Shown here piece by piece: positions 23,143 through 40,341 of a stretch of 64,000 nt of DNA (position 1 is its first letter; each line of letters opens with the position of its first letter). The stretch is from an uncultured Prevotellaceae bacterium (GTDB lineage: Bacteria; Bacteroidota; Bacteroidia; Bacteroidales; Bacteroidaceae): assembly GCA_902799765.1 (NCBI GenBank), contig CADCBZ010000002.1, positions 39,967-103,966 of the forward strand. Direction: 5' to 3'. A program made the translations under genes and the position numbers. Below the pieces are notes generated by a model. The model ran no database searches, was not told the DNA's origin, and saw only the letters and a list, made by a program, of their open reading frames with translations.

Positions 23143-23198
23143 CAACCATCTTTGTGCACTAAGATAATCAAGGTATATAGAAAAATAGCTATTTGATA

Positions 23199-25640
23199 AT
23201 GAAAAAATATCTTTTTACGATGTTTTTGTCGTGCTTAACCCTCATGGTTCAAGCACAAATGAGCGATACGCAGGTAATGCAGCAGATCCAGCGTGAGATG
23301 AAGTCGGGTGCGTCTCAGTCTCAGATTGCGACACGTCTGATGCAGAAAGGTGTCACGATGCAGCAACTCCAGCGCGTGCGTTCACAGTATGAAGCTCTGT
23401 ATGGTGGCAGGTCTTCCCGCTCCTCAGGAAATATTTCCGATGTGCTGGTAGAGGATAGCCGCCTTCGTGATAACAATGGTGCAGTCTTGGTGGACTCGGT
23501 TGGTAATGCCCTTCATACCCAGCAAGTAAGAGCTACTTCTGCAGCAGATTTAGATCGCGAAATGGTGATGAGAACAGGATCGAATGGATATTTGTATAAT
23601 GGTAAAGTCGTTTTTGGTCGAGATATTTTCAATAAAAATGCCCTTTCTTTCGAGCCGAACATGAATATCGCCACCCCGACGAATTATGTCGTAGGCCCTG
23701 GTGATAAGGTGTTTATTGATGTTTATGGTGCTTCTCAGAAGTCGGAACAGTTGCAGGTCTCTCCTGACGGCACGATTCAGGTTACAGGTTATGGTCCCAT
23801 CCATATTGGTGGCTTGTCAGTGGCTCAGGCCAATGCCCGCATCAAGGAGACGCTTGGTACCCGTTATAAGAGTTCCGAGGTTCGTCTGACGGTTGGTCAG
23901 ACCCGCACGATCAGCGTCAATATCATGGGTGAGGTCGTTGCTCCTGGTACCTATACTCTCTCTGCTTTTGCCACGGTATTTCATGCCCTCTATATGGCAG
24001 GTGGTGTCAATGGCATCGGTACACTCCGTAACATCAAGGTCTTCCGTGGTGGTCGCCAGGTCACTTCGGTCGATTTATATGATTATATCCTCAATGGCAA
24101 GCTCACGGGCAATGTCCGTTTGGCTGATAATGATGTGATCATGGTCGGTCCCTTCGACTGCATTGTCGATATCTCAGGTTTTGTGAAACGCCCGATGGCC
24201 TACGAGATGAAGAAGAACGAAAGTGTCGCCACCCTGCTCAAATACGCAGGCGGTTTTGCTTCTGGTGCCTATCGTAAGGCGGTTCGTCTGAATCGTGTGG
24301 CAGGCGACCATTATTCTGCCTATAATGTCCCCGAGTTTGAGATGGCAGGCTTCAAAGTTGCTGATGGTGACTCTGTGACGGTTGATTCCATCTTGGCTCG
24401 TTATGAGAATACGGTAACTGTCGAAGGTGCTGTCTTCCATCCTGGACATTACGACTTAGGTAGTAATCCTACCGTCCGTGCGTTGGTGGAGAGTGCGGGT
24501 GGCGTCACGGAGATTGCCTTCCAAGGTCGTGCCGTGTTACATCGCATGAAACCCGACCGTACTTGGCGTGTTGTCTCTGTGGATCTCGAAGGTATTCTCA
24601 ATGGCACCGTGGCCGATATTCCTCTGGAGAATGAGGATGTCCTCACGATTGCTGTCCGTCAGGATAAGACGAATGAACGCATCGTGACGATCATGGGCGA
24701 GGTGAAAGTGCCTGGCACCTATGAATATGCCGAGAACGAGACCGTCGAGGACTTGATTGTTCAGGCTGGTGGTCTGACAGATGCAGCATCGACTGCTCGT
24801 GTCGATGTCTCTCGTCGTATCATCGATCCGAAGGCGACGACCTTTAGAAAGGATATTGCCCAGAACTTCTCCTTCACCTTGAAGGATGGTCTCTTGATCG
24901 ATGGTGATCGCAGCTTTACGCTCATGCCTTATGATGAAGTGATCGTGCGCAGCAGCCCTGGATATATGCCCCAGCGTAACATCATGGTGACAGGTGAAGT
25001 GCTCTATCAAGGTGCTTATACACTTAATAAGAAAAACCTGCGTCTTTCGGACGTGATTGCGATGGCAGGTGGTGTCACAGACGAAGCCTATGTCCGTGGT
25101 GCTCGTATTGAGCGCCCGCTCAATGAGGATGAGAAGTTCCGATTGAAACATCTGCTGAAGATGGCACAAGTACAGGGCGGTTCAGGCTTAGACGCCAGCA
25201 AGATGGGGCAAGACACCGTTTATTATGTGGGTATCGAACTCGACAAAGCTTTGGCGAACCCAGGCAGTGATTATGATGTCGTCCTCCGAGAAGGTGACCG
25301 TCTCGTCGTGCCGGAATATTCTGGAACTGTCAAGATCAATGGCAATGTGATGCATCCGAATACCGTGGCCTATATGGAGGGTAAGCCCTATAAATGGTAT
25401 ATCAACAAGGCTGGTGGCTATGGCAATGGTGCGAAGAAGTCTAAGGCCTATATCCTTTACCAGAATGGGCTCGTATCTCAGGCAAAAAATGGAAAAATCG
25501 AACCTGGCTGCGAAATCATAGTGCCAAACAAGACGCGTTCGGCTAATCAGAATATAGCGATGATTGCTTCCCTCGGTACTTCACTGGCAACGATGGTAAC
25601 CATGATTGCAACTGTGACGAATCTGATCAAGTCTTTCTAA
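23199..25640 (+). CDS. Polysaccharide export outer-membrane protein (Wza-like, multiple SLBB-type repeats)
   Basis: 813 aa from the first ATG, with a signal peptide. A repeated motif recurs: G.V..PG.Y......T..D.I..AGG. There is a C-terminal hydrophobic helix. This architecture is typical of Bacteroidales capsule export proteins. Confidence 0.85.
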   Translation: MKKYLFTMFLSCLTLMVQAQMSDTQVMQQIQREMKSGASQSQIATRLMQKGVTMQQLQRVRSQYEALYGGRSSRSSGNISDVLVEDSRLRDNNGAVLVDSVGNALHTQQVRATSAADLDREMVMRTGSNGYLYNGKVVFGRDIFNKNALSFEPNMNIATPTNYVVGPGDKVFIDVYGASQKSEQLQVSPDGTIQVTGYGPIHIGGLSVAQANARIKETLGTRYKSSEVRLTVGQTRTISVNIMGEVVAPGTYTLSAFATVFHALYMAGGVNGIGTLRNIKVFRGGRQVTSVDLYDYILNGKLTGNVRLADNDVIMVGPFDCIVDISGFVKRPMAYEMKKNESVATLLKYAGGFASGAYRKAVRLNRVAGDHYSAYNVPEFEMAGFKVADGDSVTVDSILARYENTVTVEGAVFHPGHYDLGSNPTVRALVESAGGVTEIAFQGRAVLHRMKPDRTWRVVSVDLEGILNGTVADIPLENEDVLTIAVRQDKTNERIVTIMGEVKVPGTYEYAENETVEDLIVQAGGLTDAASTARVDVSRRIIDPKATTFRKDIAQNFSFTLKDGLLIDGDRSFTLMPYDEVIVRSSPGYMPQRNIMVTGEVLYQGAYTLNKKNLRLSDVIAMAGGVTDEAYVRGARIERPLNEDEKFRLKHLLKMAQVQGGSGLDASKMGQDTVYYVGIELDKALANPGSDYDVVLREGDRLVVPEYSGTVKINGNVMHPNTVAYMEGKPYKWYINKAGGYGNGAKKSKAYILYQNGLVSQAKNGKIEPGCEIIVPNKTRSANQNIAMIASLGTSLATMVTMIATVTNLIKSF

Positions 25641-25654
25641 AAATTGATACTATC

Positions 25655-26719
25655 ATGGAAGAAAATAAAAAGGAAACTGTTCGTCGGACTGGTGCACCTA
25701 TTGACTTCGGTGCTACTTGGGCTGCCATCAAGAAATATAAAAAGCTCTATTACAAGACGCTGGGGTTTGCTTTCGTCATAGCGCTTATTATAGGCTTCTC
25801 TATACCAAAGACTTATAATTGTCAGATACTGCTAGCGCCTGAAACTGGTGGGGGAAGTAGTAGTTTAGGTACATTAGCTTCTCTTGCTTCGTCTTTTGGT
25901 GTTAGTCTTGGAAGTAGTTCGCAAGGAGGCGATGCCATCAAACCATCCATTTATCCCGATCTCATGAAAAGTGTGGATTTTAAGACCTCGCTCTTTCCGA
26001 TTAAAGTAAAAAAGAAGGGAGATGAGAAAGCTATCTCATATTATAATTATCTCAAATATGAGTGGCGTGAACCTTGGTGGAAGGATATGTTTGGATTGTT
26101 GTCGCCAGAATTGAAAGAAGATACGTTGGTTAATGCATTCGAATTGACTTCCGAACAATCTCGTATTGCAAGCTTAGCTATTAAAAATATCGAATGTACT
26201 ATTGATAAAAAAACAGGTTTAATAACGATTGATGTAACAGCTCAGGATCCCAATATTGCTGCCCTGTTAGCTGATTCTGTTAAGAACCGGTTACAGGATT
26301 TCTTGACTGCCTATCGTACTAAGAAAGCGCGTCATGACTTGGATTTCGCTTTAAAATTGAACAAACAGGCTAAGAAGGACTATGAGCGTATCCGACAAGT
26401 CTATTATGAATATATGGATGCCAATCAGGATGTCTCGCTATTATCGGCAACACAGAGACAAAACGATTTGGAAAACGAAATGCAGCTGCAGTATAATAAC
26501 TTTACAGCCACAAGCGCCCAAGTGTTGGCAGCCAAGGCTAAAGTTCAAGAAACAACCCCCTCATTTACAACTGTTCAGTCTGCCACAGTGCCCTTAAAAC
26601 CTTCTGGTCCTAGGAGACTGGTCATTTTGGCGGTTTGTCTTTTCTTGGCAGCATTAGGCACCACCATCTATGCTCTTGCTAAAGAGCATCAACTGAAGCC
26701 CCTTCTTGGTCTCTCTTGA
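25655..26719 (+). CDS. Chain-length determinant (Wzz-like) protein without a kinase domain
   Basis: 354 aa with N- and C-terminal TM helices flanking a coiled-coil-rich periplasmic region. It lies directly after the export gene. Confidence 0.78.
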   Translation: MEENKKETVRRTGAPIDFGATWAAIKKYKKLYYKTLGFAFVIALIIGFSIPKTYNCQILLAPETGGGSSSLGTLASLASSFGVSLGSSSQGGDAIKPSIYPDLMKSVDFKTSLFPIKVKKKGDEKAISYYNYLKYEWREPWWKDMFGLLSPELKEDTLVNAFELTSEQSRIASLAIKNIECTIDKKTGLITIDVTAQDPNIAALLADSVKNRLQDFLTAYRTKKARHDLDFALKLNKQAKKDYERIRQVYYEYMDANQDVSLLSATQRQNDLENEMQLQYNNFTATSAQVLAAKAKVQETTPSFTTVQSATVPLKPSGPRRLVILAVCLFLAALGTTIYALAKEHQLKPLLGLS

Positions 26720-26842
26720 TGATCACCGTTCCTTCACCCAATACATCAAAGAACCCATCTTCCACGGCTACGTAGAGGAATGTCTATGGTGATTGTGTAA
26801 AATTATTTAGCAACAGTTATTTGAATTGTAAAGACTTGCAAA

Positions 26843-27949
26843 ATGGTGAAATTCTTGGATTTACAGGCTATCACGGCTATGCATGGTGATGAAATCAAGG
26901 CGGCAGTTAATCGCGTCATAGACTCTGGTTGGTTCCTACAGGGAAATGAGAATCAACAGTTTGAATCGGATTATGCAAAATATATAGGCACTGACCATTG
27001 TGTGGCTGTGGCAAACGGCTTAGATGCCTTGAAATTGATATTACGAGGCTATAAAGAAATGGGCATCATGAAGGATGGTGATGAGATCATAGTTCCTGCA
27101 AATACCTACATTGCAACCATTCTTGCTATAACGGAAAATAATCTTGTTCCTATATTGGTTGAACCTACATTTGATCATCTTGAGATGGATATTGATCTGG
27201 TTGAACAGCATATCACGCCAAGAACTAAAGGTGTTATGATTGTTCACCTTTATGGACGTATTGCCTACAATGACAAGTTAGGTGAAATATGTAAAAAGTA
27301 TGGGCTGAAATTGTTGGAAGACTGTGCTCAAAGTCATGGCTGCGCTTGGAAAGGTATAAAGACCGGTGCATTGGGAGATGCTGCTGCCCATAGTTTTTAT
27401 CCGGCTAAAAATCTTGGGGCTTTGGGTGATGCAGGTGCTGTTACGACCAATGACCAGGAACTGGCATCTGTCATCAGGACATTGGCCAACTATGGTAGCC
27501 CACAGAAATATGTTTTTAAGTATGTTGGTATGAACAGTCGTATGGCTGAGACGGATGCTGCCGCTTTGGATGTAAAGTTAAAATATCTGGATGAGGATAA
27601 TCAGGCGCGTCAGAAACTGGCTGCATACTATTATGAAAACATCAAAAATCCACTGATTACCTTGCCCAAGCGCCTTGCTGATGAGAATAATGTTTATCAT
27701 CAATTTCCCATTTTCTGTGAAAAAAGAGATGAGTTGCAAGTATTTTTGAAAGAGAATGATATCCAGACTTTGATCCATTATCCTATTCCTCCTCATAAGC
27801 AGGACTGTTATAAGACATGGAATAATCGTAGTTATCCAATTACAGAGAAGATACATGCTCAGGAATTATCGATACCAATGAATCAGGTGTTAAAAGTGTC
27901 AGAAGCTAAGCTTATTGTTGATAACCTTAATTCTTTCAGACCTTTATAA
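26843..27949 (+). CDS. DegT/DnrJ/EryC1/StrS-family sugar aminotransferase
   Basis: 368 aa with motifs typical of nucleotide-sugar aminotransferases: SFYPAKNLGALGDAGAVTTND and the NSRMAE block. Confidence 0.88.
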   Translation: MVKFLDLQAITAMHGDEIKAAVNRVIDSGWFLQGNENQQFESDYAKYIGTDHCVAVANGLDALKLILRGYKEMGIMKDGDEIIVPANTYIATILAITENNLVPILVEPTFDHLEMDIDLVEQHITPRTKGVMIVHLYGRIAYNDKLGEICKKYGLKLLEDCAQSHGCAWKGIKTGALGDAAAHSFYPAKNLGALGDAGAVTTNDQELASVIRTLANYGSPQKYVFKYVGMNSRMAETDAAALDVKLKYLDEDNQARQKLAAYYYENIKNPLITLPKRLADENNVYHQFPIFCEKRDELQVFLKENDIQTLIHYPIPPHKQDCYKTWNNRSYPITEKIHAQELSIPMNQVLKVSEAKLIVDNLNSFRPL

Positions 27950-27997
27950 AAAGTGAAAATACTTGCAGTTTTCTTTGGTAGATTCCCAAAATAGTCG

Positions 27998-28005
27998 TAC
28001 CTTTG
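27998..28005 (+). promoter_or_regulatory. Possible internal -7 promoter box TACCTTTG
   Basis: It lies in the 188-nt gap between the aminotransferase and the rfbC-like gene. Confidence 0.3.
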
Positions 28006-28137
28006 CGGCATTAAAAGGGAATCGATTCCAAAAGTAGTACCTTTTTGGAGAAATTTTTAAAATTGTAAGGTGCCTAACACTTTGGCTATGAGATTGTTAT
28101 GCCTATGTGTTAGGAAGGTTGTTGCTTGTCTATATTT

Positions 28138-28692
28138 ATGGAATTAATTAAAACTGCCATTGACGGCTTGTATATTATCGAACCACGAATCTTTAAAGAT
28201 TCGCGAGGCTATTTCTTCGAATCCTTCTCTCAACGAGAATTCGATGAGAAAGTTGGTAAGATCACTTTCGTTCAAGATAACGAAAGCAAATCAAGCTACG
28301 GTGTGATGAGAGGCTTACACTTCCAGCGTCCTCCCTTTACGCAGAGTAAATTGGTTCGCTGTGTCCAAGGTGCTGTCTTGGATGTAGCGGTCGATATCCG
28401 AAAAGGGTCACCGACCTATGGTCAGCACGTAGCTGTGGAACTGACAGAGGAAAACCATCGTCAGATTTTTATCCCTAAAGGTTTTGCCCACGGTTTTGCT
28501 GTGCTGTCAGAAACAGCAGTCTTTCAGTATAAGTGTGATGAGTTCTATCACCCTGAAACTGAGGGAGGTATCAATATCATGGATGATTGTTTGGATATAG
28601 ATTGGAGGGTCCCTATCAATAGAGCTGTCCTCTCAGAAAAAGACACAAAGTATCATTCGTTACGAGATTTTTGTAGCCCATTTGTGTATTAA
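28138..28692 (+). CDS. rfbC: dTDP-4-dehydrorhamnose 3,5-epimerase-like (RmlC cupin)
   Basis: 184 aa from the ATG at 28138. RmlC signatures are present: FKDSRGYFFE, RGLHFQ and GFAHGF. Confidence 0.88.
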   Translation: MELIKTAIDGLYIIEPRIFKDSRGYFFESFSQREFDEKVGKITFVQDNESKSSYGVMRGLHFQRPPFTQSKLVRCVQGAVLDVAVDIRKGSPTYGQHVAVELTEENHRQIFIPKGFAHGFAVLSETAVFQYKCDEFYHPETEGGINIMDDCLDIDWRVPINRAVLSEKDTKYHSLRDFCSPFVY

Positions 28693-28706
28693 TCCTATAC
28701 TAAAGA

Positions 28707-30050
28707 ATGAAAAAAGTTATTACATATGGTACATATGACCTGTTGCATCAAGGTCATATTAATCTTTTACGCAGAGCAAAAGAACTTGGGGAATACCTGA
28801 TAGTAGGTGTTACTAATGATAGTTTTGACCGTGACAGAGGTAAATTGAATGTGCGTAATAATGTACTTGAACGAGTAGAAGCAGTCAAAGCGACAGGTTA
28901 TGCCGACCAGATTATTATTGAGGATTATGTCGGTCAGAAAATTGATGATATACAGAAATACGATGTTGATATTTTTGCTATCGGTAGTGACTGGGAGGGT
29001 AAATTTGACTATTTGAAGGAGTTTTGTGAGGTCGTATATCTTCCCCGTACTGAAGGTATTTCAAGTACGATGTTACGAAATGATACGCAGTTAACGGTTA
29101 AGATTGGTATTTTGGGATGTGGACGAGTTGCGTATCGTTTCCCTATCGAGGCTGATGTGGTCAGTGGTATCAATGTTGTTGCCGCTTATGATATAGAAGT
29201 AGATCATGCTCAAAGTTTCTCCACTCAATTTGAAAATGTGATAGCATATACTGAAATAGATAAATTTTACGATGCTGTAGATGCCATATATATAGCCACT
29301 CCCCATTTAGCTCATTATGAAAATATCAAAGATGCGCTGCTACACAAAAAACATGTCTTATGTGAAACGCCCATGGTGTTGAATGGAGGGCAAGCTAAAG
29401 AATTGTATAAAATCGCAGAACAGATGGGGGTTATATTAATGGAAGCCAATAAAACGGCCCATTGCCCTGCCTTTAATCATTTGATCGTGCTTATAAAATC
29501 TGGATTAATCGGTGATATTGTGGATATAGAGGCTTCTTTATCTCAATTGCTGGATAAGTCTGGACGTGAGTTTGATGTAAAACAGGCTGGAGGAGCTCTT
29601 TTTGAACAAGGTTCTTATCCGTTACTGCCAATATTTAGGCTGATGGGGATTCATTATGAAGATCTTATGCTTTTTTCTCGCATGGAGAATGGTGTTGATA
29701 TCTATACACGCGGTGTTTTTAGATATAATAATGCTTCATGTTCTTTCAAAGTGGGACTTGGTGTTAAAACAGAAGGTAATCTTGTCATATCTGGTACAAA
29801 AGGTTATGCCTACGTGCCAGCCCCATGGTGGAAAACTGATTATTTTGAACTTCGATATGAAGACCAGAATGAAAACAAAAAGTTTTTTTATAAATGGGAT
29901 GGTTTCGGATTACGATATGAAATACAGGAATTTGTTTCATGTATATTGAACCATCGTTTCTCTTCTGCTCGTTTACGCAGACGAGAGAGCATCCAGATGG
30001 CATATGTTATGGAACAGTTTGTGAATCAGCAGAATATCTATATTATTTAG
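28707..30050 (+). CDS. Fusion protein: glycerol-3-phosphate cytidylyltransferase (TagD-like) N-domain plus Gfo/Idh/MocA-family oxidoreductase C-domain
   Basis: 447 aa. Residues 1 to about 125 (MKKVITYGTYDLLHQGHINLLRRAKELG...CEVVYLPRTEGISSTMLR) closely parallel B. subtilis TagD as I recall it, including the HxGH motif. The remainder begins with the Rossmann motif KIGILGCGRVA and looks Gfo/Idh/MocA-like. Confidence 0.85.
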   Translation: MKKVITYGTYDLLHQGHINLLRRAKELGEYLIVGVTNDSFDRDRGKLNVRNNVLERVEAVKATGYADQIIIEDYVGQKIDDIQKYDVDIFAIGSDWEGKFDYLKEFCEVVYLPRTEGISSTMLRNDTQLTVKIGILGCGRVAYRFPIEADVVSGINVVAAYDIEVDHAQSFSTQFENVIAYTEIDKFYDAVDAIYIATPHLAHYENIKDALLHKKHVLCETPMVLNGGQAKELYKIAEQMGVILMEANKTAHCPAFNHLIVLIKSGLIGDIVDIEASLSQLLDKSGREFDVKQAGGALFEQGSYPLLPIFRLMGIHYEDLMLFSRMENGVDIYTRGVFRYNNASCSFKVGLGVKTEGNLVISGTKGYAYVPAPWWKTDYFELRYEDQNENKKFFYKWDGFGLRYEIQEFVSCILNHRFSSARLRRRESIQMAYVMEQFVNQQNIYII

Positions 30051-30093
30051 TAACGAGCATCTTTTGTGTTCGTCCTGAATGTGTTTCATAAAC

Positions 30094-31629
30094 ATGGAAC
30101 AGCAACAATATAAAAGCAGTAATAAGAGGATAGCCAAGAATACACTTTATATGTATTTCCGAATGGCCATTCTTATGCTGGTATCCCTCTACACTTCACG
30201 TGTGGTTCTTGCCAATTTAGGTATAGATGATTATGGAATTTACAATGTCGTTGGGGCATTGATTGTTTCATTCACCTTTATTAAAGGCCCTTTAAGCAGT
30301 GCCACTCAACGATTCTTGAATTTTGAGATGGGGGTTAAGACTAACGGAAGACCGAATCTGGTATTCAACGTCAGTCTTTATGTGTATATCGTCATTGCTG
30401 TTTTATTAGTTCTTGTACTGGAGATTGGTGGACTATGGTTCCTAAATAATCAGATGAATATTCCTAATGGTCGCATGTCTGCTACGCAGTTCACTTTTCA
30501 GGTTAGTCTCATTTCATTGCTTTTTAGTTTTGCGCGTGTTCCGTATGATGCATTGATTATTACAAATGAACGATTGTCCTTTTATGCATTACTTAGTTTG
30601 CTGGAGGTAACGTTAAAACTACTCAATGCATTCTCTCTATCATACTTCATGGTTGATAAACTTGAATTGTATGCAATCAATCATTTAGCTATAGATATAA
30701 TAATTACTTCCACATTTATAACCTACACAAAAGTTAAAATTCCCGAGTTTAAGTTTACAGGAGAGTGGGATGGTAAGATTGCCCGTTCGCTTCTCAAATT
30801 CACAGGCTGGGGCTTGTTTGGCTCTTTTACTGCCATGACAGCAGATGAAGGCGTGACAATTATTATTAATATCTTTTGTGGCGTTTTTGTTAATGCATCA
30901 ATGGGTATTGCCCAGCAAATCAATAATGCTATCTGTGGACTTGCATCTAACTTCCAGACAGCATTCCGACCACAAATCATGAAAAGCTATGCCTCTGGTG
31001 ACTGGCAAGATATGAATACATTAATAGAGCGTACTTCCAAATTCTCTTTTCTTCTTATCTTTCTTATTGCCTTTCCTTTTAGTTTAAATTGTGAATTTAT
31101 TCTGGATCTATGGCTAAAAGAGTGGCCGCCGCTGGCGAGGGATTTTTGTATCTTTTTTATGGGCTATTCGTTGATTAATGTTCTTGGTGCGCCATTTTGG
31201 ATGGCTATCTATGCTACCGGGAATATTAGAAACTATCAATTGCTTTATAGTTGTATTTCCCTATTAAATATAGTCTTTTCTTACATCCTTCTTTTATTAG
31301 GCTTATCTCCGTGTTCAGTATTGGTTGTCAAAATCCTTTTGGAGGTTGCTATTCTGACTACAAGAATTGAATTGGTAAGAAGATATGTTAATTTTGTACC
31401 CTCTATATATTCTAAGAAGGTATTGCTACCTTGTACTTTCGTTTTGCTTCTTTCATCCCTACTAATCATACCTTTTTGCTTTCTGATAGGTATAGGATGG
31501 ATCCGGCTAATTGTTACATTGATGTTATTTGTTATTTTGTATCCATTCTTGATTTACTATATATGTTTGTCAAGTTCCGAACGGAAATATGTTTTGGAAA
31601 AGTTATCCATGATTACAATTAAAAAATAA
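30094..31629 (+). CDS. wzx: Wzx-type oligosaccharide flippase (MOP superfamily)
   Basis: 511 aa from the ATG at 30094, polytopic, with an N-terminus typical of polysaccharide biosynthesis flippases (NTLYMYFRMAILMLVSLYTSRVVL). Confidence 0.8.
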   Translation: MEQQQYKSSNKRIAKNTLYMYFRMAILMLVSLYTSRVVLANLGIDDYGIYNVVGALIVSFTFIKGPLSSATQRFLNFEMGVKTNGRPNLVFNVSLYVYIVIAVLLVLVLEIGGLWFLNNQMNIPNGRMSATQFTFQVSLISLLFSFARVPYDALIITNERLSFYALLSLLEVTLKLLNAFSLSYFMVDKLELYAINHLAIDIIITSTFITYTKVKIPEFKFTGEWDGKIARSLLKFTGWGLFGSFTAMTADEGVTIIINIFCGVFVNASMGIAQQINNAICGLASNFQTAFRPQIMKSYASGDWQDMNTLIERTSKFSFLLIFLIAFPFSLNCEFILDLWLKEWPPLARDFCIFFMGYSLINVLGAPFWMAIYATGNIRNYQLLYSCISLLNIVFSYILLLLGLSPCSVLVVKILLEVAILTTRIELVRRYVNFVPSIYSKKVLLPCTFVLLLSSLLIIPFCFLIGIGWIRLIVTLMLFVILYPFLIYYICLSSSERKYVLEKLSMITIKK

Positions 31630-31641
31630 TATGATAGGTTT

Positions 31642-32721
31642 ATGATTAATTTTACAGTTGGTCCTGTGCAGTCAAGTGATGCTGTCCGGGCTATTGGCGC
31701 AGAACAAGTTCCTTATTTTAGAACGACCGAATTTTCTGAGGTCATGTTGGAAAATGAGCGTCTTATTAAGAAGTTTGCTCATGCAACAGATGATAGTAGG
31801 GTCGTGTTTATGACCTGCTCTGGTTCTGGTGGTATGGAGACAGCCGTTATGAATACGCTGACAAAGGATGATAAAGCCTTGGTCATTAATGGTGGTAGTT
31901 TTGGCGAACGTTTTGTGGAATTATTGTCACTTCATGAGATTCCTTTTACAGAAATTAAGTTAGAACATGGCAAAGCTCTGAAACCAGAACACTTGGCACC
32001 ATACGAAGGTAAAGGTTATACCGCATTCTTGATGCAGAAGCATGAGACATCAACAGGTGTTCATTTTGACATTGATATGGTTTCTGATTTCTGCAAACGC
32101 AATCATCTTTTTTTGATTGTTGACACCATCAGTACTTTCCTCTGTGATCCTTTCGATATGGCAGCTACCAATACAGGTATTATGATTACAGGCTCACAGA
32201 AAGCCTTGGCTTGTGCTCCAGGTATCGCGGTGATGATTCTTGCACCTTCTGCGTTGAAGCGTGTTGCGGAGAAAAAGTGTTGCTGCCAGTATCTTGATTT
32301 GAAGCTCGCGTTAAAGAATATGGAGAGAGGCCAGACACCCTGGACTCCTGCTGTTGGTATCCTTCGTCAGATTAATGTTCGTTTGAAAGAAATTGAAGCA
32401 ATGGGTGGTGCAGAAGCTGAAATTGCACGTTGTGCAGGTTTGGCAAAGTACTTCCGTGATAAGTTAGTGGAGTACAACTTGCCATTTGAGATCGTATCAG
32501 AAAGTCTTTCAAATGCTGTAACGCCCCTTCATCCTACAACACAGTCTGCCTACGAAATCTTCCTGAAGATTAAGAACGAGTATGGTATGTGGATTTGTCC
32601 GAATGGAGGTGATATGAAGAATACTATTTTCCGTGTAGGGCATATCGGTGCACTAACTAAAGAAGACTATGACCAATTGATAGATGCCTTTCTGGACTTG
32701 AGAATAAAAGGCTTTATATGA
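31642..32721 (+). CDS. Class V (AGXT/PhnW-like) PLP-dependent aminotransferase
   Basis: 359 aa with an N-terminal FTVGPV...YFRTTEFSEVM block, an internal SGSQKAL block (putative PLP-Lys) and a C-terminal FRVGHIG. Confidence 0.82.
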   Translation: MINFTVGPVQSSDAVRAIGAEQVPYFRTTEFSEVMLENERLIKKFAHATDDSRVVFMTCSGSGGMETAVMNTLTKDDKALVINGGSFGERFVELLSLHEIPFTEIKLEHGKALKPEHLAPYEGKGYTAFLMQKHETSTGVHFDIDMVSDFCKRNHLFLIVDTISTFLCDPFDMAATNTGIMITGSQKALACAPGIAVMILAPSALKRVAEKKCCCQYLDLKLALKNMERGQTPWTPAVGILRQINVRLKEIEAMGGAEAEIARCAGLAKYFRDKLVEYNLPFEIVSESLSNAVTPLHPTTQSAYEIFLKIKNEYGMWICPNGGDMKNTIFRVGHIGALTKEDYDQLIDAFLDLRIKGFI

Positions 32722-32727
32722 TTATTT

Positions 32728-33360
32728 ATGAATCTACGTTACGACATATTAGAGAATACAGGATTTTCTTATGATGATCTCGTGAACCTCCTGCATATTG
32801 CGTTTCATGAAAGGACAAAGCAAGGTCTCTACTTTTCATGTTACAATTTTACAGTTGATGACTATAAAAGAAATACAAAAGGTGGTACCACTTTCATTGC
32901 TTATGATCCTGATAATCATGAGTTGTATGGTATGCTTGCTTTAACCCCACGCAGAGATGAAGAAGGCATCCTATATGGAAATCATGAATATTTAGCAGTG
33001 TTACCAGCATCTCAGCATAGTGGCGTTGCAACCAAACTGTTTCAGCTTTGTGAGAAAAAGTGTATTGAAATGAATGCCAGTTATATTCTTAGCGATACAG
33101 CAATAGGCGCAAAGAGTTCTGTACGATATCATCTTAAACAGGGATTTCAGATAATAGGATATGAGGCGTTTAGTAATACCAATTATTATTCATACATATT
33201 TAAGAAATCACTACCGCCGAATTCTGATTTGAATGGTGGATTGTCAGGGTGGCGTTTATTAAAAGCATATATAATATTTAGGCTCAAATTTCATGTACAT
33301 AAAAAGCCTACTTTACTATATCGCATATATTTAAGATTTTTAAATTTGATATTAAAATGA
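32728..33360 (+). CDS. GNAT-family N-acetyltransferase
   Basis: 210 aa. The acetyl-CoA-binding-type motif is VLPASQHSGVATKLF (Q/R-x-x-G-x-A). An ATGA overlap joins it to the next gene. Confidence 0.65.
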   Translation: MNLRYDILENTGFSYDDLVNLLHIAFHERTKQGLYFSCYNFTVDDYKRNTKGGTTFIAYDPDNHELYGMLALTPRRDEEGILYGNHEYLAVLPASQHSGVATKLFQLCEKKCIEMNASYILSDTAIGAKSSVRYHLKQGFQIIGYEAFSNTNYYSYIFKKSLPPNSDLNGGLSGWRLLKAYIIFRLKFHVHKKPTLLYRIYLRFLNLILK

Positions 33361-34163
33361 AGGAATTGTCCTTAAAGGAAATTCAGGGTGTTGGCCTTGA
33401 TATTCTGAAAAATGTTCATGAGTTTTGTTGTAATCATGACATTAAATATTCAATCTTTTATGGCACTTTAATAGGAGCAGTCCGTCATAAAGGCTTTATT
33501 CCCTGGGATGATGACATTGATATTATCATGCCAAGAGATGATTATAATAAATTCTGTAAGACATATAGCTCAAAAGATGGCTATTGTCTTTTAAAACCAA
33601 AACAAAATTACTTGGCATTTGCTCGTCTCTATGATACTAAAAGAACTACCTCAGAAACATGGCTTCCTGATGCTCCCATCAAAGGTTTGGGAGTGAGTAT
33701 TGATATCTTCCCTGTTGATAAAGTAAGCGATGAGAAATCGGAGTTTGATAAGTGTCTTGCCAAATGTTCTGAAATGTATCTTGAACAGTTGCGTTTCAGA
33801 TATTCCGTTGATTCCATCTCCAAATTGTTAAGAAGGAAAAAACCCATACGTTCAATTATAAAAAAAATTTTATATCATGGTAAAATTGATCAGATATTAA
33901 CAAAGCATGAACAATTGGCTACTATGTTTAATCAGATGGAAACAAATCATTGGAGTCAACTGACTTGTCCTGACCCGTCAAAGGAATATCATTTGATGGA
34001 AGATTTCAATGATACCGTCATGCTTCCTTTTGAGGACTCTGAATTTTGTGCATTGAAGGGGTATGAAAGAGTTCTTACAGAGATGTATGGTGATTATATG
34101 CAATTACCTCCAGTTGAAAAGAGAAAGGGTAGTTTTGGTGAAACGACATTCTTTTGGAAATAA
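33357..34163 (+). CDS. LicD-family phosphotransferase (CDP-alcohol-dependent)
   Basis: 268 aa with the LicD signature GTLIGAVRHKGFIPWDDDIDIIMPRDDY and the C-terminal YGDYMQLPP. Confidence 0.85.
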   Translation: MKELSLKEIQGVGLDILKNVHEFCCNHDIKYSIFYGTLIGAVRHKGFIPWDDDIDIIMPRDDYNKFCKTYSSKDGYCLLKPKQNYLAFARLYDTKRTTSETWLPDAPIKGLGVSIDIFPVDKVSDEKSEFDKCLAKCSEMYLEQLRFRYSVDSISKLLRRKKPIRSIIKKILYHGKIDQILTKHEQLATMFNQMETNHWSQLTCPDPSKEYHLMEDFNDTVMLPFEDSEFCALKGYERVLTEMYGDYMQLPPVEKRKGSFGETTFFWK

Positions 34164-34169
34164 CATCTG

Positions 34170-34970
34170 ATGAAAGAGATTGGAATAGAAGCTTTAAAAC
34201 AGATACAACTTGATATGTTAAAGGATATCCATGCTTTTTGTATGGACCATCAAATCAATTATTCTTTAGCATTTGGAACTTTATTAGGGGCTGTCCGTCA
34301 CAAAGGTTATATTCCTTGGGATGATGATGTCGATATTATGATGCCAAGAGAAGATTATAACCGGTTTATTCGGTCTTATGGTAATCAGATTTATAAGATT
34401 GCAGATATGTTTGTTAATCCAGATTATGTTGATTCGTTTGCCAAGGTTGAGGATACACGAACTGTTATAGAAGAATACGAGGAAGGCGGTTCTTTTGTCT
34501 TTGGTGTATATATTGATGTGTTCCCTGTAGATTATGTTCCTGATAACTTGTCTGAAAGAAAGGCTTTTTACAAGAAAAAGAGGATGTGGAATGTTTTGTA
34601 TGAGCTAAAAAGAATAAAAGTCAAGAAAGGAAGATCCTTTGTTAAGAATCTGGCATTGATGGTTGGGCATCGCCTTCTTTTCTTTATTAGCAGACGACAA
34701 CTCGCTCATAAATTGTCGGAATTAGCTTCTAAGTATCAAGGACAGAAAACTACCTTTATGGGAATTGTTGCTCCTGCGGATAGTCGTATTGAAGAAGCTG
34801 TACCATCCAATTGTTTTGAGGAGTATATAGAATTGCCTTTTGAGAATATCAATGTGATGTCCATAAAGAACTATGATTGCTATTTGTCAGCTGCTTTTGG
34901 TGACTATATGCAATTGCCACCAGAAGAAAAACGTGTATCACATCATGTGTTCAAGGCATATTGGAGATAA
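34170..34970 (+). CDS. LicD-family phosphotransferase (second paralog)
   Basis: 266 aa with GTLLGAVRHKGYIPWDDDVDIMMPREDY and FGDYMQLPP. Confidence 0.85.
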   Translation: MKEIGIEALKQIQLDMLKDIHAFCMDHQINYSLAFGTLLGAVRHKGYIPWDDDVDIMMPREDYNRFIRSYGNQIYKIADMFVNPDYVDSFAKVEDTRTVIEEYEEGGSFVFGVYIDVFPVDYVPDNLSERKAFYKKKRMWNVLYELKRIKVKKGRSFVKNLALMVGHRLLFFISRRQLAHKLSELASKYQGQKTTFMGIVAPADSRIEEAVPSNCFEEYIELPFENINVMSIKNYDCYLSAAFGDYMQLPPEEKRVSHHVFKAYWR

Positions 34971-34982
34971 TTTGTTTGAGTC

Positions 34983-36077
34983 ATGTATCAGCTCATCTTA
35001 TTAATTTTGATTTTTTTTAGCTGCATTGAGATCTTCTCAGGTAAGAGAAGCCAATTGTGGTTTCATATTTCTTACCTATTAATGACCTTTGTTGCTGTTT
35101 TTAGGTATGGGCAGATGGATGACTATTTTAACTATTTCCAGTATTATGAGGATCCCAGTATCTATATGGAGGTAGATATACTCTATGGTGCAATAACTCA
35201 ACTATTTAAGGCTTGCTCGATACATTATATTGTTTTTTCTGCATTCGTTTCGTTGCTCTGTATGGTTCTTGCATATCGTTTTTTTGCGCAAGATTGTGAG
35301 TATAGTTGTTTAAGTTTATTGATATTTTATTGTTATACCTTCCTTTTATGTTGTCCTTTGGGAGCTTTCCGACAGGGCATATGTCTATCCATTTTACTCT
35401 TCTTCTATCACAGAATAAAAGATAATAAGGATAAAGCATTCTATTTCTGGGGCATTGTTGGCAGTTTTATCCATCTCTCTTTTATAGTTCTTTTGATTTT
35501 GCCTTATTTGATGCGTCTGAAGATATACAATGCCTCTTTTGTTGTTTATGCTATTATCGGACTCTCTGCTTTGGCTTTTGTCGGTATAAGTATTGCCCAG
35601 TTCCTGCCATTTGAGAGAATAACGTACTATCAGGAAGGCGAAGGTGTCGGCATTTGGCTAAGAATGGGTTTGAGAATCTTGATGATTGTTCCTGTTCTTT
35701 TATGTAAACCAGATTATGGGAGTGACGGGTATTATGCAAAAGCTATATGTCTTATTGGCTTTGCTCTTTATTGTGTGTTGAGTTTTAATGACTTGGTCGC
35801 TGGGCGCCTGGAGTACTATTTTAGAACATTCCTTTGTTTGTTCGCTGCCTATTATATTGCAAATTATGAATGGAAATTTAGGGCAAGTGTGCAACTGTTC
35901 TTGCTACTTGTAGTCCATCTTGTACTATGGTACAAAAATATGAGTGTGGAAATTGAACGTATGGAATATAAAGAGGGTACCACCGTTCTTAACTTTCCGT
36001 TTATTTCCGTGTTTGATAAATCTGAACTAAAAGAATATAGCGGAATAGATACATTTGGCCTCGATGAAGGAAGATAG
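34983..36077 (+). CDS. EpsG/Wzy-like polysaccharide polymerase (polytopic membrane protein)
   Basis: 364 aa, very hydrophobic with many TM segments. Its position in the locus is typical of Wzy/EpsG-family proteins. Confidence 0.65.
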   Translation: MYQLILLILIFFSCIEIFSGKRSQLWFHISYLLMTFVAVFRYGQMDDYFNYFQYYEDPSIYMEVDILYGAITQLFKACSIHYIVFSAFVSLLCMVLAYRFFAQDCEYSCLSLLIFYCYTFLLCCPLGAFRQGICLSILLFFYHRIKDNKDKAFYFWGIVGSFIHLSFIVLLILPYLMRLKIYNASFVVYAIIGLSALAFVGISIAQFLPFERITYYQEGEGVGIWLRMGLRILMIVPVLLCKPDYGSDGYYAKAICLIGFALYCVLSFNDLVAGRLEYYFRTFLCLFAAYYIANYEWKFRASVQLFLLLVVHLVLWYKNMSVEIERMEYKEGTTVLNFPFISVFDKSELKEYSGIDTFGLDEGR

Positions 36078-36085
36078 CCTTAATT

Positions 36086-37165
36086 ATGAATACTCTATAT
36101 TTTGATAACATCGTATTTGATTTGCAGAAATCTGGTGGTATATCTGTAGTATGGTATGAATTACTGACAAGGATCTGTCATCAGAATGATTTCTGTATAA
36201 GGTTTATTGATAATGAGGGAAGTGTGAATCCATATCGACGAGGATTGAATATTCATCATGATATGATTATGAAGGGTGATTCGTGCATGGCGGTCTCTCG
36301 GTATTTGCCTGTTTCAATAAAAAGAGATAGTCCGTTTTTATTCCATTCTTCATACTATCGTTATTGCAAGAATCCTAATGCTATCAATATCACAACAGTT
36401 CATGACTTTACATATGAATATTACCGAAAGGGATTAGCCAAAAAGTTGCATTGTTGGCAGAAATATAAGGCATTAAGACATTCTCAATATATTGTTTGTA
36501 TATCTGAAAACACAAAACGGGATTTACTAAAGTTTGTACCGGATATTGAGGAGGAAAAAATTAGGATCATCTATAATGGTGTTTCTGATGATTATTGCGT
36601 TTTAGATAAAAGTGAGGCTTCAAGTGCCATCCCATTTGAAAGAAACAAGTATGTAGTATTTGTTGGGAATAGAGGTGGGTATAAGAACTTTGACTTCCTG
36701 AAGAAAACGATCACCAAGTCAAATTTTAACTTAGTGATAGTGGGCTCCCCTTTATCAGACGAAGAAGTTTGTGATCTGGAGAGGTTTCTACCTCGGGAAA
36801 GATATGTATGTACGGGCTTCCTTCCCAACAAGGATTTGAATGTCCTTTATAATCATGCCGCAGCCTTGGTATATCCTTCGGCTTATGAAGGATTTGGAAT
36901 ACCTGTTATTGAGGCTCAGAAAGCTGGCTGCCCTGTGATAGCTTATAATAATTCCTCAATACCTGAAGTAATTGGTGAGACACCCTTGTTAATGAATGAA
37001 CTGACGGAAAAGGAATTGTTGGATAAACTATCTCTGCTGGCAAATGACGACCTGTTAAAAAAGGTACGGGAGGATGGCCTGAAGAATGCTGCGAGGTTTA
37101 GCTGGGATAAAATGTATCAAGGATATTCTAATCTGTATCAAGAAGTTTTTGATCAAGTTAAATAA
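36086..37165 (+). CDS. Glycosyltransferase family 4 (GT-B)
   Basis: 359 aa with the C-terminal motif YPSAYEGFGIPVIEAQKAGCPVI (E-x7-E type). Confidence 0.85.
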   Translation: MNTLYFDNIVFDLQKSGGISVVWYELLTRICHQNDFCIRFIDNEGSVNPYRRGLNIHHDMIMKGDSCMAVSRYLPVSIKRDSPFLFHSSYYRYCKNPNAINITTVHDFTYEYYRKGLAKKLHCWQKYKALRHSQYIVCISENTKRDLLKFVPDIEEEKIRIIYNGVSDDYCVLDKSEASSAIPFERNKYVVFVGNRGGYKNFDFLKKTITKSNFNLVIVGSPLSDEEVCDLERFLPRERYVCTGFLPNKDLNVLYNHAAALVYPSAYEGFGIPVIEAQKAGCPVIAYNNSSIPEVIGETPLLMNELTEKELLDKLSLLANDDLLKKVREDGLKNAARFSWDKMYQGYSNLYQEVFDQVK

Positions 37166-37924
37166 ATGAAGATTTCAATTATTACAGCGACATATAATAG
37201 CGGAAAGACTGTGCGTGATACCCTTGAGAGTGTGTTGCGGCAGACTTTTTCGGACTATGAGTATATCATCAAGGATGGAGGCTCTAAAGATGATACCTTA
37301 GAAATCGTCAAGAACTATGCGCCAAAGTTTGGTGAGAGATTAAAGGTTATCTCAGAACCTGACCAAGGAATATATGATGCAATGAATAAGGGGTTTCAGA
37401 TGGCAACGGGAGATGTGATTGGGATTCTGAACTCCGATGATTTCTATACGTCTGACGATGCCCTCCAGGTGATTGCTGATGCTTTCGCGAACAATGATAT
37501 TGATGCAACGTATGGTGATATCCATTTTGTGAACGATGATGATCTATCAAAGCGCGTCCGTTATTATTCCTCGGCTGTATTCAGACGATCTTTTATGCGT
37601 TTTGGTTTGATGCCTGCCCATCCGTCTTTCTATTGTAAGAAGGCTGTCTATGAAAAATATGGTGCCTTTGATACGTCGTATAAGGTGGCGGCGGATTTTG
37701 AGAACCTCTTGCGTATCATCTATGTAGGAAACATTAAGACTAAGTATATCCCTAAAGACTTCGTGACTATGCGAACAGGTGGTGCTTCCACTGCTGGACT
37801 TTCGAGCAGGACCCAGATCATGAAGGATCATCTTAGGGCCTTGAAGACAAATGGTATATACTCGAATGTGTTTTTGTTGAGTTTGCGGTATATCTATAAA
37901 GTGTATGAGTTAGTGAGGAGATAA
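37166..37924 (+). CDS. Glycosyltransferase family 2
   Basis: 252 aa with an N-terminal ISIITATYNSGKTVRDTLESVLRQTF...IIKDGGSKDDT and the DxD-type motif LNSDDF. Confidence 0.87.
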   Translation: MKISIITATYNSGKTVRDTLESVLRQTFSDYEYIIKDGGSKDDTLEIVKNYAPKFGERLKVISEPDQGIYDAMNKGFQMATGDVIGILNSDDFYTSDDALQVIADAFANNDIDATYGDIHFVNDDDLSKRVRYYSSAVFRRSFMRFGLMPAHPSFYCKKAVYEKYGAFDTSYKVAADFENLLRIIYVGNIKTKYIPKDFVTMRTGGASTAGLSSRTQIMKDHLRALKTNGIYSNVFLLSLRYIYKVYELVRR

Positions 37925-39489: not shown

Positions 39490-40341
39490 TCATAGCTCGT
39501 TCGTTATAGTCTTAAAATTGTCAGTTAAGGCTTCAGAACGATTTTTCTTTTTACCTACTTGAGATATGGAGTATATACTGATGGCGGTGAGTCGAGAGAG
39601 TTGTCGTATGCTTGCTCCGAAGTCCTTGGCTGCAATCAGGATCTCACAGCGTTGTTCTTTTGGAAAATGTTGAATGTCTTTGGGTGTTCCTATGTGATAG
39701 GTGGATTTAAGGAAGGCAATCACTTCTTTATCGGGGACTGCTCCCCGATACCTTTCGATTTCGAGAACCTGAGTGTCCTTAGGTAAAGGAGTGTTGACTT
39801 GCTCAATGAGTTCGTTAAGGGGAAAAAGGGCTAATACTTGTTGAATAGAGCAGATTGCAATCATTCTATGGGAGGTGCTGATATATTCACACCAACTGCT
39901 CCAGGCATAATCCTTGACACGACGGCAAAGATTACCTGCCACTGGATTCTGATGGATATGTCTAAGGAGTGTCAGGAAATATGCTTCGTCGTTGACGGGC
40001 TCGCTTTTAAACCGATTTTGAAATAGATGTCCACAATGTTGGTATTTATTGTTGTAATAGATGGCATAGCGCAAAGCAATTTTCTTGACTATTTCTGCGA
40101 TGATTTCACCTTCTTCCTTGATGAGCAGGTGCACGTGGTCGGGCATCAGACAATAGGAAAATAAGACACATCGCGGTGGTAGTGGCTGCTTAAACTCGTC
40201 TTTTAGTGATACCATATCGCGTAAGATGAGGATGAATTTCCTATAATCATTTCCATGTTCGAAGATTTGCTGATAGTTGACGCCTCTGAGCATAACGTGA
40301 TAGATGCCCGTCTGACTACGACCTCTTGCTTTTCTTGCCAT
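39490..40341 (-). CDS. RayT/IS200-like HUH (Y1 transposase fold) protein with a C-terminal DnaA-domain-IV-like HTH; predicted catalytic Tyr replaced by His
   Basis: 283 aa with an N-terminal GIYHVMLRGVN and the HUH motif PDHVHLLI. The expected (R)YIHxNPV block reads LLRHIHQNPV, with His at codon 39958-39960. The C-terminal SIRQLSRLTAISIYSISQV looks like an HTH. Confidence 0.8.
   Translation of the reverse strand: MARKARGRSQTGIYHVMLRGVNYQQIFEHGNDYRKFILILRDMVSLKDEFKQPLPPRCVLFSYCLMPDHVHLLIKEEGEIIAEIVKKIALRYAIYYNNKYQHCGHLFQNRFKSEPVNDEAYFLTLLRHIHQNPVAGNLCRRVKDYAWSSWCEYISTSHRMIAICSIQQVLALFPLNELIEQVNTPLPKDTQVLEIERYRGAVPDKEVIAFLKSTYHIGTPKDIQHFPKEQRCEILIAAKDFGASIRQLSRLTAISIYSISQVGKKKNRSEALTDNFKTITNEL

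Follow-up and report, generated by a model that had tools for sequence, protein, structure and literature searches.

Domain content of the six proteins

The DNA analysed here, a stretch of 64,000 nucleotides from an uncultured Prevotellaceae bacterium (the window), contains a capsule operon in which six consecutive genes encode a candidate system for tailoring CDP-glycerol. An earlier interpretation made from the letters of this stretch (the sequence-only reading) had placed the six genes in a polysaccharide locus, and all six open reading frames (ORFs) were found there on the + strand. Pfam and NCBIfam profile searches with curated cut-offs reproduced the domains it had named for the fusion protein, the aminotransferase, the GNAT protein and the two LicD proteins. 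The genes and the two domains of the fusion are given below, with AT5 denoting the class V aminotransferase of the window.

28707-30050, + strand: TagD::Gfo/Idh/MocA fusion, 447 amino acids (CTP_transf_like, GFO_IDH_MocA and GFO_IDH_MocA_C3)
28707-29084, + strand: TagD-like cytidylyltransferase domain of the fusion, residues 1-126 (Pfam CTP_transf_like, residues 5-125, E 3.6e-18)
29097-30050, + strand: Gfo/Idh/MocA-type NAD(P) oxidoreductase domain of the fusion, residues 131-447 (GFO_IDH_MocA, residues 131-246; GFO_IDH_MocA_C3, residues 262-368)
30079-31629, + strand: multi-pass membrane protein, 516 amino acids, probably a Wzx-type flippase (sub-threshold MatE match, hydrophobic stretches)
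31642-32721, + strand: class V (fold-type I) pyridoxal phosphate (PLP) aminotransferase, AT5 (Pfam Aminotran_5, E 8e-14)
32728-33360, + strand: GNAT N-acetyltransferase (Pfam Acetyltransf_1, E 5.6e-8)
33357-34163, + strand: LicD-family phosphotransferase 1 (Pfam LicD, E 2.7e-41)
34170-34970, + strand: LicD-family phosphotransferase 2 (Pfam LicD, E 6.7e-48)

The N-terminal domain of the fusion had been described as very TagD-like, which agrees with its 52% identity to S. aureus TarD (PDB 2b7l) and 51% identity to B. subtilis TagD (PDB 1coz). The nucleotide-binding motifs of TagD (HxGH and RTEGISTT) are present as H14-Q-G-H17 and R114-T-E-G-I-S-S-T. To describe residue conservation, 140 non-identical fusion sequences were compared, and H14, G16, H17, R44, G45, K46, D95, W96, R114, T115 and S119 were invariant. 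The invariant R44-G-K46 segment carries a conservative replacement of the TagD residue K44 by arginine; we take the Lys44/Lys46 loop of TagD to have a role in catalysis and glycerol phosphate binding.

The C-terminal domain matched GFO_IDH_MocA with an E value of 4.3e-19, and both PF01408 and PF22725 exceeded their cut-offs, confirming the proposed Gfo/Idh/MocA type, though with non-canonical motifs. The glycine-rich dinucleotide motif is present (G134-x-x-G137-x-G139). The closest solved relatives of the domain are 3e9m, 4iq0 and 3evn (function unassigned), the dTDP-sugar 3-ketoreductase KijD10 and dimeric dihydrodiol dehydrogenase. The site that reads EKP in the solved relatives is E220-T221-P222 in the window fusion, and the acid/base motif D-x-x-x-H/Y is E300-x-x-x-Y304 (E300-x-G-S-Y304) in the window and the Bacteroidota clade. 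Two other segments, K249-T-A and W374-W-K-T-D-Y-F-E-x-R-Y-E385, were nearly invariant among the 140 fusions. An AlphaFold2 model of the fusion, built from a shallow alignment (sequences at least 80% identical), reached a mean pLDDT of 63 and a pTM of 0.53 and was not used.

AT5 matched PDB 3f0h, a structural-genomics entry of unassigned function, over its full length with 60% identity (E 1e-141), and the S-Q-K motif containing the PLP lysine was invariant. Variants of AT5 of 268-269 amino acids with at least 90% identity occurred on many contigs, up to 120 (P0436-P0439 and P0446); they are explained either by truncation of the allele or, in some strains, by a different choice of start.

The GNAT protein scored 33.5 bits against PF00583 (cut-off 20.7) and contains the acetyl-CoA motif Q/R-x-x-G-x-G/A as Q-H-S-G-V-A. 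LicD1 and LicD2 scored 143 and 164 bits against PF04991, are 37% identical to each other and carry the acidic DxD-type motif (PWDDDIDI and PWDDDVDI). LicD and Glyphos_transf enzymes use CDP-alcohol donors, and from the characterised LicD members we infer that the window LicD proteins use a CDP-activated alcohol; LicD2 probably serves either another acceptor site or another donor. The membrane protein at 30079-31629 was the weakest of the earlier assignments. Its size, several long hydrophobic stretches and position in the operon make a Wzx-type flippase plausible, but MatE scored only 21.2 bits, short of its cut-off (24.9), and there was no match to an NCBIfam model. ORFs 29-38% identical to it were found in six of 80 related loci, and in locus L177 a 511-amino acid protein without a Pfam match occupies the same position, directly upstream of AT5.

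Partners of the fusion in related loci

A protein search for relatives of the fusion returned at least 8000 clusters, the best 120 of which were all fused and all at least 80% identical, and an exhaustive search of representatives of clusters at 50% identity gave 415 clusters that matched with an E value of 1e-30 or better. Of the 599 matched stretches listed for species-level genomes, at least 579 encoded a fusion relative, and the carriers among these matches were Fibrobacter, Prevotella, Bacteroides, Alistipes, Muribaculaceae and Akkermansia. Among genomes, Fibrobacter gave the best matches to the window fusion (80%). The conserved gene set was also present in other gut bacteria, among them Fibrobacter and Eubacterium rectale, the species that carries the 3f0h gene, and rumen metagenome assemblies held identical copies of the window locus. 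Two sets of loci were compared. The genome set consists of 80 species-level genome loci (L001-L080) chosen solely for carrying a TagD::Gfo fusion. The metagenome set consists of 80 loci fetched via those relatives of AT5 that are most similar to PDB 3f0h (55-67% identity to the window AT5); the ranking by similarity to 3f0h over-represents one clade.

The genome set showed that the gene beside the fusion is one of a few alternative enzymes. In about 58-60 of the 80 loci it encodes a 239-amino acid classical short-chain dehydrogenase/reductase (SDR; adh_short, a FabG-like ketoreductase); examples of this arrangement lie at 10001-12100 in L008 and 11344-12063 in L064. In 14 loci it is AT5, 67-86% identical to that of the window, and in two it is a HisC-like class I/II aminotransferase (TIGR01141, 229 bits). 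One locus has the SDR plus a nearby HisC-like gene, and three have neither partner. SDR and aminotransferase were strongly exclusive (both, 1; aminotransferase only, 16; SDR only, 60; neither, 3; Fisher p = 5.8e-13), in a test that, like the one for GNAT below, takes no account of relatedness among loci. Fusions of the two types were up to 81% identical. That the same fusion is found with either a ketoreductase or an aminotransferase is as predicted by a scheme in which an oxidised intermediate is reduced or aminated, and it suggests that the SDR-type loci could encode a two-enzyme inversion of CDP-glycerol stereochemistry, an activity that is undescribed.

We examined the reciprocal association in the metagenome set. 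A TagD domain 61-74% identical to that of the window was located within about 4 kb of AT5 in 74 of the 80 loci, mostly immediately downstream, and a Gfo domain (29-45% identical) was detectable in 64. In the six loci without TagD near AT5 the contig stops close to AT5, within about 200 nt of it in five cases and within about 800 nt in L125. Thus, wherever the contig continues, AT5 was never seen without TagD::Gfo in these 80 loci. Of the contigs that encode 3f0h itself (L093-L096, 100% identity), three were long enough to show the same module, comprising a TagF-like gene, AT5, TagD::Gfo, LicD and GNAT. The Gfo domain of this Firmicutes type is ~40% identical to that of the window, with Ser for Thr221 and Thr for Tyr304.

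Gene order varied and the gene set was kept. The window has fusion-Wzx-AT5-GNAT-LicD-LicD. Other orders are GNAT-LicD-AT5-fusion (L081-L086), TagF-like-fusion-GNAT-AT5 (L087-L092), TagF-like-AT5-fusion-LicD-GNAT (L095, with AT5 100% identical to 3f0h), AT5-GNAT-LicD-GNAT-fusion-LicD (L177) and AT5-LicD-GNAT-fusion (L178), together with two HisC-like arrangements, fusion-HisC-like-LicD (L009) and GNAT-HisC-like-fusion (L024). Co-occurrence of the five non-flippase genes, raised by the sequence-only reading, held in part: the fusion and the aminotransferase form a tight pair, but LicD can be replaced by a TagF-like transferase and GNAT is present in a minority of loci. Overall, 100 of 167 loci had LicD or Glyphos_transf (TagF-like) genes no more than 6 kb from the fusion. 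Two further neighbours were observed. An ATP-grasp gene directly upstream of the module in L081-L086 (4512-5798) might attach an acyl or aminoacyl substituent to the amine, and a sulfatase-family (LtaS/EptA-like) gene plus a gene for a 508-amino acid Metallophos protein directly precede AT5-LicD-GNAT-fusion in L178 (793-4114) and L180 (783-4105).

GNAT genes were detected across loci with a crude, home-made iterated hidden Markov model over a 5 kb range. They were found in 13 of 75 non-identical aminotransferase-type loci and in none of 60 SDR-type loci (p = 5e-4), and at least three unrelated GNAT subfamilies occurred in the modules, all confined to aminotransferase-type loci. The family of the window GNAT is rare (13 matches), and tblastn with it found no match in the 80 genome loci, a result that reflects a rare, divergent family rather than the absence of GNAT. 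Three of its homologues (54, 40 and 44% identical) belong to AT5/LicD/fusion modules, and the regions returned around them contain no DegT gene; another, at 41% identity, lies in an unrelated context. GNAT is thus an optional add-on specific to the aminotransferase branch, and since most aminotransferase-type loci lack it, the usual product would carry a free amine.

Comparison of the two fusion types showed where they differ. The TagD domain of the window is 93% identical to those of the SDR-type loci L008 and L011, and no column of this domain discriminated aminotransferase-type from SDR-type fusions (lowest residue-distribution overlap, 0.53). Three columns of the Gfo domain were fully discriminating: column 280 has Q/S/T in the aminotransferase type and K/R in the SDR type, column 286 has G versus L/R/T, and column 301, within the E300-x-G-S-Y304 active-site motif, has Q/W/E versus L/M/S. 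The window fusion has the aminotransferase-type residues at all three. These results suggest that the two branches probably share one cytidylyltransferase substrate and that the redox step is tuned to the partner, which favours cytidylylation first, oxidation second and the partner enzyme third over a route in which the aminotransferase prepares the cytidylyltransferase substrate.

Relatives of the Gfo domain with 38-50% identity were found, among the best 150 representative clusters, fused to glycerophosphodiester phosphodiesterase (GDPD), LicD or calcineurin-like phosphoesterase domains. The architectures included Gfo::GDPD, TagD::Gfo::GDPD, LicD::Gfo::GDPD and Metallophos::TagD::Gfo::GDPD. 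In L182 and L185 a second such Gfo protein follows a TagD::Gfo gene, and stand-alone GDPD genes accompany five SDR-type loci. The repeated fusion of this Gfo subfamily to LicD and GDPD ties it to glycerophospho-diester substrates. Relatives with GDPD, LicD or phosphoesterase domains lie beside TagD::Gfo at 5645-9724 in L182, 4634-7782 in L185 and 1569-5089 in L186; the L182 genes are within a flagellin locus (FliD/FliS/flagellin), which hints at a use in flagellin glycans.

Candidate pathway and alternative explanations

We consider it somewhat probable that the six genes represent the aminotransferase branch of a widespread system that tailors CDP-glycerol, leading toward a CDP-linked amino-propanediol (serinol-type) phosphate decoration. 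Substrates, products and the order of steps are inferred from domain and neighbourhood comparisons. In this pathway, the TagD-like domain would convert glycerol-3-phosphate and CTP to CDP-glycerol, and the Gfo/Idh/MocA domain would carry out the NAD+-dependent oxidation of CDP-glycerol, most likely at C2, giving CDP-dihydroxyacetone. AT5 would then aminate the ketone to CDP-2-amino-1,3-propanediol (CDP-serinol), and the window GNAT would N-acetylate the new amine. The two LicD paralogues would move phospho-(N-acetyl)amino-propanediol onto the repeat unit made by the neighbouring glycosyltransferases, after which the decorated unit would be flipped by the Wzx-like protein and polymerised by the EpsG protein. 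In the sister SDR branch, reduction of the keto intermediate would probably yield the other enantiomer of glycerol phosphate, by analogy with the DprE1/DprE2 epimerisation. Oxidation at C2 is favoured because a C1 aldehyde would render the common SDR branch futile. The substrate of histidinol-phosphate transaminase is a ketone adjoining CH2-O-phosphate, and a C2 ketone is also favoured because the alternative aminotransferase is HisC-like. The carbonyl intermediate, probably CDP-dihydroxyacetone, would be either reduced or aminated.

More tentatively, CDP-dihydroxyacetone may be the hub of a widespread pathway with two branches, present in bacteria of the gut and the rumen (Prevotella, Bacteroides, Alistipes, Muribaculaceae, Akkermansia, Fibrobacter and E. 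rectale-type Firmicutes), in which the SDR inverts CDP-glycerol and the aminotransferase makes CDP-serinol, with a free-amine, zwitterionic decoration on capsules where GNAT is absent. Under this broader proposal flagellin glycans are possibly decorated as well.

The oxidise, aminate and acetylate logic on CDP-glycerol put forward in the sequence-only reading was thus partly supported: the domains, the alternation of partners and the pairing of AT5 with the fusion fit it, but the lysine of the EKP motif is absent and GNAT is optional. Several observations weigh against the proposed pathway. The TIGR01518 score of the TagD-like domain, 124.2 bits, is under the equivalog cut-off of 165.4, and segments 40-60 and 68-76 have diverged from bona fide TagD; glycerol-3-phosphate is therefore a likely, though unproven, substrate. 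Residue 221 was scored in 137 of the 140 fusions as T (77), S (48), I (9) or A (3), with lysine outside these four commonest residues, and Tyr304 is replaced by Thr in 44 of the 140, the Firmicutes clade closest to 3f0h. Because the EKP lysine is replaced and Tyr304 is variable, the catalytic mechanism of the Gfo domain, and even its activity, is not assured. A neighbour-joining tree of the fusions showed that partner type tracks phylogeny with ~3 switches, so the co-occurrence statistics overstate the number of independent events. The window GNAT could instead acetylate the product of the DegT-family aminotransferase encoded upstream of the fusion.

The module has other possible explanations. 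One of them, which we consider improbable, places the oxidation at the terminal carbon, giving CDP-glyceraldehyde and then a CDP-3-amino-1,2-propanediol (1-amino-1-deoxyglycerol phosphate) decoration. The closest named relatives of AT5, 2-aminoethylphosphonate (AEP) transaminase and alanine-glyoxylate aminotransferase, do act on aldehydes, but Gfo/Idh/MocA enzymes typically oxidise secondary alcohols or hemiacetals, the SDR partner would merely reduce the aldehyde back to the starting compound and so make the common branch futile, and the HisC-like alternative works on ketones next to CH2-O-phosphate. Still less probability attaches to modification after transfer, in which LicD would first attach glycerol phosphate to the lipid-linked repeat unit and oxidation, amination and acetylation would follow in place at the cytoplasmic face. 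The fusion of the Gfo subfamily to LicD and GDPD is in favour of this order, these being domains that recognise glycerophospho-diesters generally and not CDP-glycerol alone; the direct TagD::Gfo fusion argues instead for consecutive steps on a nucleotide-linked compound, and the known oxidise, aminate and acetylate routes use nucleotide-activated substrates. We give an equally low probability to a Gfo domain that acts as a reductase ahead of cytidylylation, making a polyol phosphate as in Bcs1 or TarIJ, with AT5 and GNAT serving another component of the glycan. CDP-alditols are known to be made by fused reductase-cytidylyltransferases (Bcs1), and the product of the window DegT aminotransferase needs an acyltransferase. 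Yet AT5 was found only next to TagD::Gfo, in several gene orders and different phyla, including loci without DegT in the region returned; the exclusivity of SDR and aminotransferase would be left unexplained; and the TagD domain is close to glycerol-3-phosphate enzymes, a substrate that needs no dedicated reductase.

The remaining alternatives concern the substrate of AT5. It is rather unlikely, in our judgement, that AT5 transaminates free dihydroxyacetone phosphate (DHAP) to serinol phosphate, from which the TagD-like domain would make CDP-serinol, with the Gfo domain supplying DHAP from glycerol-3-phosphate or having a side role. Such a transaminase is characterised in C. jejuni, where Cj1437 converts DHAP to (S)-serinol phosphate (PMC11800397), and in phosphonate tailoring the step of a class V aminotransferase precedes that of the cytidylyltransferase fused to it (PMC6697681); PDB 6pd1 was among the structure matches to AT5. 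Moreover, an extra stand-alone CTP_transf_like cytidylyltransferase of 140 amino acids is encoded beside AT5 in four Fibrobacter loci, L002, L005, L006 and L010 (e.g., 8427-8849 in L006), each with two to three LicD genes. This enzyme may supply a second CDP-alcohol donor or may act in activation after transamination, the latter being a further point against the pathway proposed above. As DHAP is a central metabolite, however, the fused dehydrogenase, strictly conserved as it is, would be redundant. No position of the TagD domain is specific to the partner, though its substrate would differ between the branches (amino-alcohol versus glycerol phosphate), and its catalytic and phosphate-binding residues match those of TagD that uses glycerol-3-phosphate. 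We found it highly improbable that AT5 is an AEP transaminase, with AEP as the decoration and the fusion providing CDP-glycerol for a separate substituent. PhnW-AepZ was the best NCBIfam match of AT5, and ~24% of phosphoenolpyruvate (PEP) mutases are fused to CTP_transf_like domains (PMC6697681). The AT5 score of 147 bits is nevertheless far below the cut-off of 360.8, and the operon domain calls include neither PEP mutase nor phosphonopyruvate decarboxylase. The motif EDKxxxxxNS is diagnostic of PEP mutase (PMC6697681); searched for as a regular expression only, it was found in none of the six frames of the window and in 2 of about 170 related loci. As AT5 is not a PhnW/AepZ equivalog and the PEP mutase motif is absent from the window, the AEP pathway was rejected; an aminotransferase with AEP as its substrate was an outcome that the sequence-only reading had named as one that would speak against its proposal. 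The two loci with a motif-containing ORF (EDKVGLKQNS) have it a few kb from the module (6271-7581 in L147 and 12728-14038 in L159), and AEP tailoring and the AT5 module may coexist there.

If CDP-glycerol is indeed oxidised and aminated as proposed above, the system would provide a new nucleotide-activated building block, CDP-serinol, free or N-acetylated, and a new means, encoded by a very common gene, to diversify glycerol-phosphate decorations. It would also give a function to 3f0h and to thousands of proteins annotated as 'alanine--glyoxylate aminotransferase family' and 'glycerol-3-phosphate cytidylyltransferase'. A free-amine phospho-amino-alcohol would be a surface charge motif comparable to phosphoethanolamine or AEP, and zwitterionic capsule motifs would be predicted in abundant gut commensals, where they would be relevant to immune recognition and phage adsorption. 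The logic of oxidation, amination and acetylation is already established for UDP-sugars. In openly accessible full text we found nothing on CDP-serinol or CDP-dihydroxyacetone, nothing combining Gfo/Idh/MocA with CDP-glycerol, no CDP-glycerol epimerase and no serinol-phosphate teichoic or capsular substituent beyond the C. jejuni amide route; 3f0h was cited once, as a structural neighbour.

The surrounding operon and known systems

The six genes are flanked by the following genes of the capsule operon, which ends, after the GT2 gene, with DUF6016 and PMI genes.

23193-25640, + strand: Wza-like exporter, start of the capsule operon
25655-26719, + strand: chain-length-determinant-like gene
26843-27949, + strand: DegT-family sugar aminotransferase (Pfam DegT_DnrJ_EryC1, E 1.7e-98)
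28126-28692, + strand: RmlC-like epimerase (Pfam dTDP_sugar_isom, E 5.9e-72; TIGR01221 rmlC above cut-off)
34983-37924, + strand: EpsG-family membrane protein (probable Wzy-type polymerase), then family 4 and family 2 glycosyltransferases, GT4 and GT2 (Pfam EpsG, Glycos_transf_1 and Glycos_transf_2)

From the RmlC-like gene through PMI the intergenic gaps are at most 28 nt, and GNAT and LicD1 overlap by 4 nt, indicating that the six genes are part of one operon. GC content per gene is 34-42% over 25655-37924 and ~49-51% in the flanks; this low-GC island covers the serotype-specific part of the capsule operon, which fits a cassette exchanged horizontally. Directly downstream of the operon is a gene for an IS200/IS605-type Y1 transposase (39490-40341, - strand). 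The DegT aminotransferase and RmlC-like epimerase genes (26843-28692) are just upstream of the fusion, in an operon without RmlA or RmlB, and they point to an amino-deoxyhexose in the same glycan, a possible alternative substrate of GNAT. The EpsG, GT4 and GT2 proteins are predicted to build the acceptor glycan.

Among known systems, TagD/TarD shares with the N-terminal domain the HxGH and RTEGIS(S/T)T motifs, the R/K44-x-K46 loop and 51-52% identity over the whole domain; the window domain differs in its fusion to an oxidoreductase, its sub-cut-off TIGR01518 score and its divergence at 40-60 and 68-76. In the WbpB/WbpE/WbpD and WlbA/WlbC/WlbB pathways, UDP-GlcNAcA is oxidised at C3, transaminated and N-acetylated, with a Gfo/Idh/MocA dehydrogenase acting first. 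The likeness lies in the three-step logic on a nucleotide-activated substrate. Those pathways use a DegT aminotransferase and a left-handed beta-helix acetyltransferase on a UDP-sugar, whereas the window has a class V (elsewhere HisC-like) aminotransferase, GNAT and a proposed CDP-polyol. Only the dehydrogenase family matches, and the window dehydrogenase lacks the EKP lysine. By analogy, the window system would work like the WbpB/WbpE/WbpD pathway without being a member of it.

DprE1/DprE2 carry out a two-enzyme epimerisation, oxidation followed by SDR reduction, and the fusion plus FabG-like SDR of the sister branch has the same oxidase-then-SDR layout. DprE1 is of an FAD-dependent oxidase family and acts on a lipid-linked ribose, so the comparison bears on the window only via the sibling SDR branch. 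A redox enzyme is coupled or fused to a cytidylyltransferase in Bcs1 and TarI-TarJ (CDP-ribitol) and in AbpA/AbpB (CDP-arabinitol), where the redox step is on a CDP-linked compound. These systems differ from the window in having an IspD-type cytidylyltransferase, an SDR or medium-chain (MDR) reductase, the reductive direction and no amination.

Cj1437 acts in the HS:2 capsule of C. jejuni, making (S)-serinol phosphate from free DHAP (PMC11800397), and the route is like the proposed one in providing 2-amino-1,3-propanediol phosphate for capsule decoration. An ATP-grasp enzyme links its product to glucuronate as an amide, and dephosphorylation follows; neither CDP activation nor LicD transfer takes part. 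The PntC-AEPT and LicC/LicD systems (CMP-AEP and CDP-choline) resemble the window in combining a class V aminotransferase with a cytidylyltransferase and in placing a small zwitterionic phospho-head-group onto surface glycans (PMC6697681). They differ in their LicC/MobA-type nucleotidyltransferase, the need for PEP mutase and the lack of an oxidoreductase step, whereas the nucleotidyltransferase of the window is of the TagD type.

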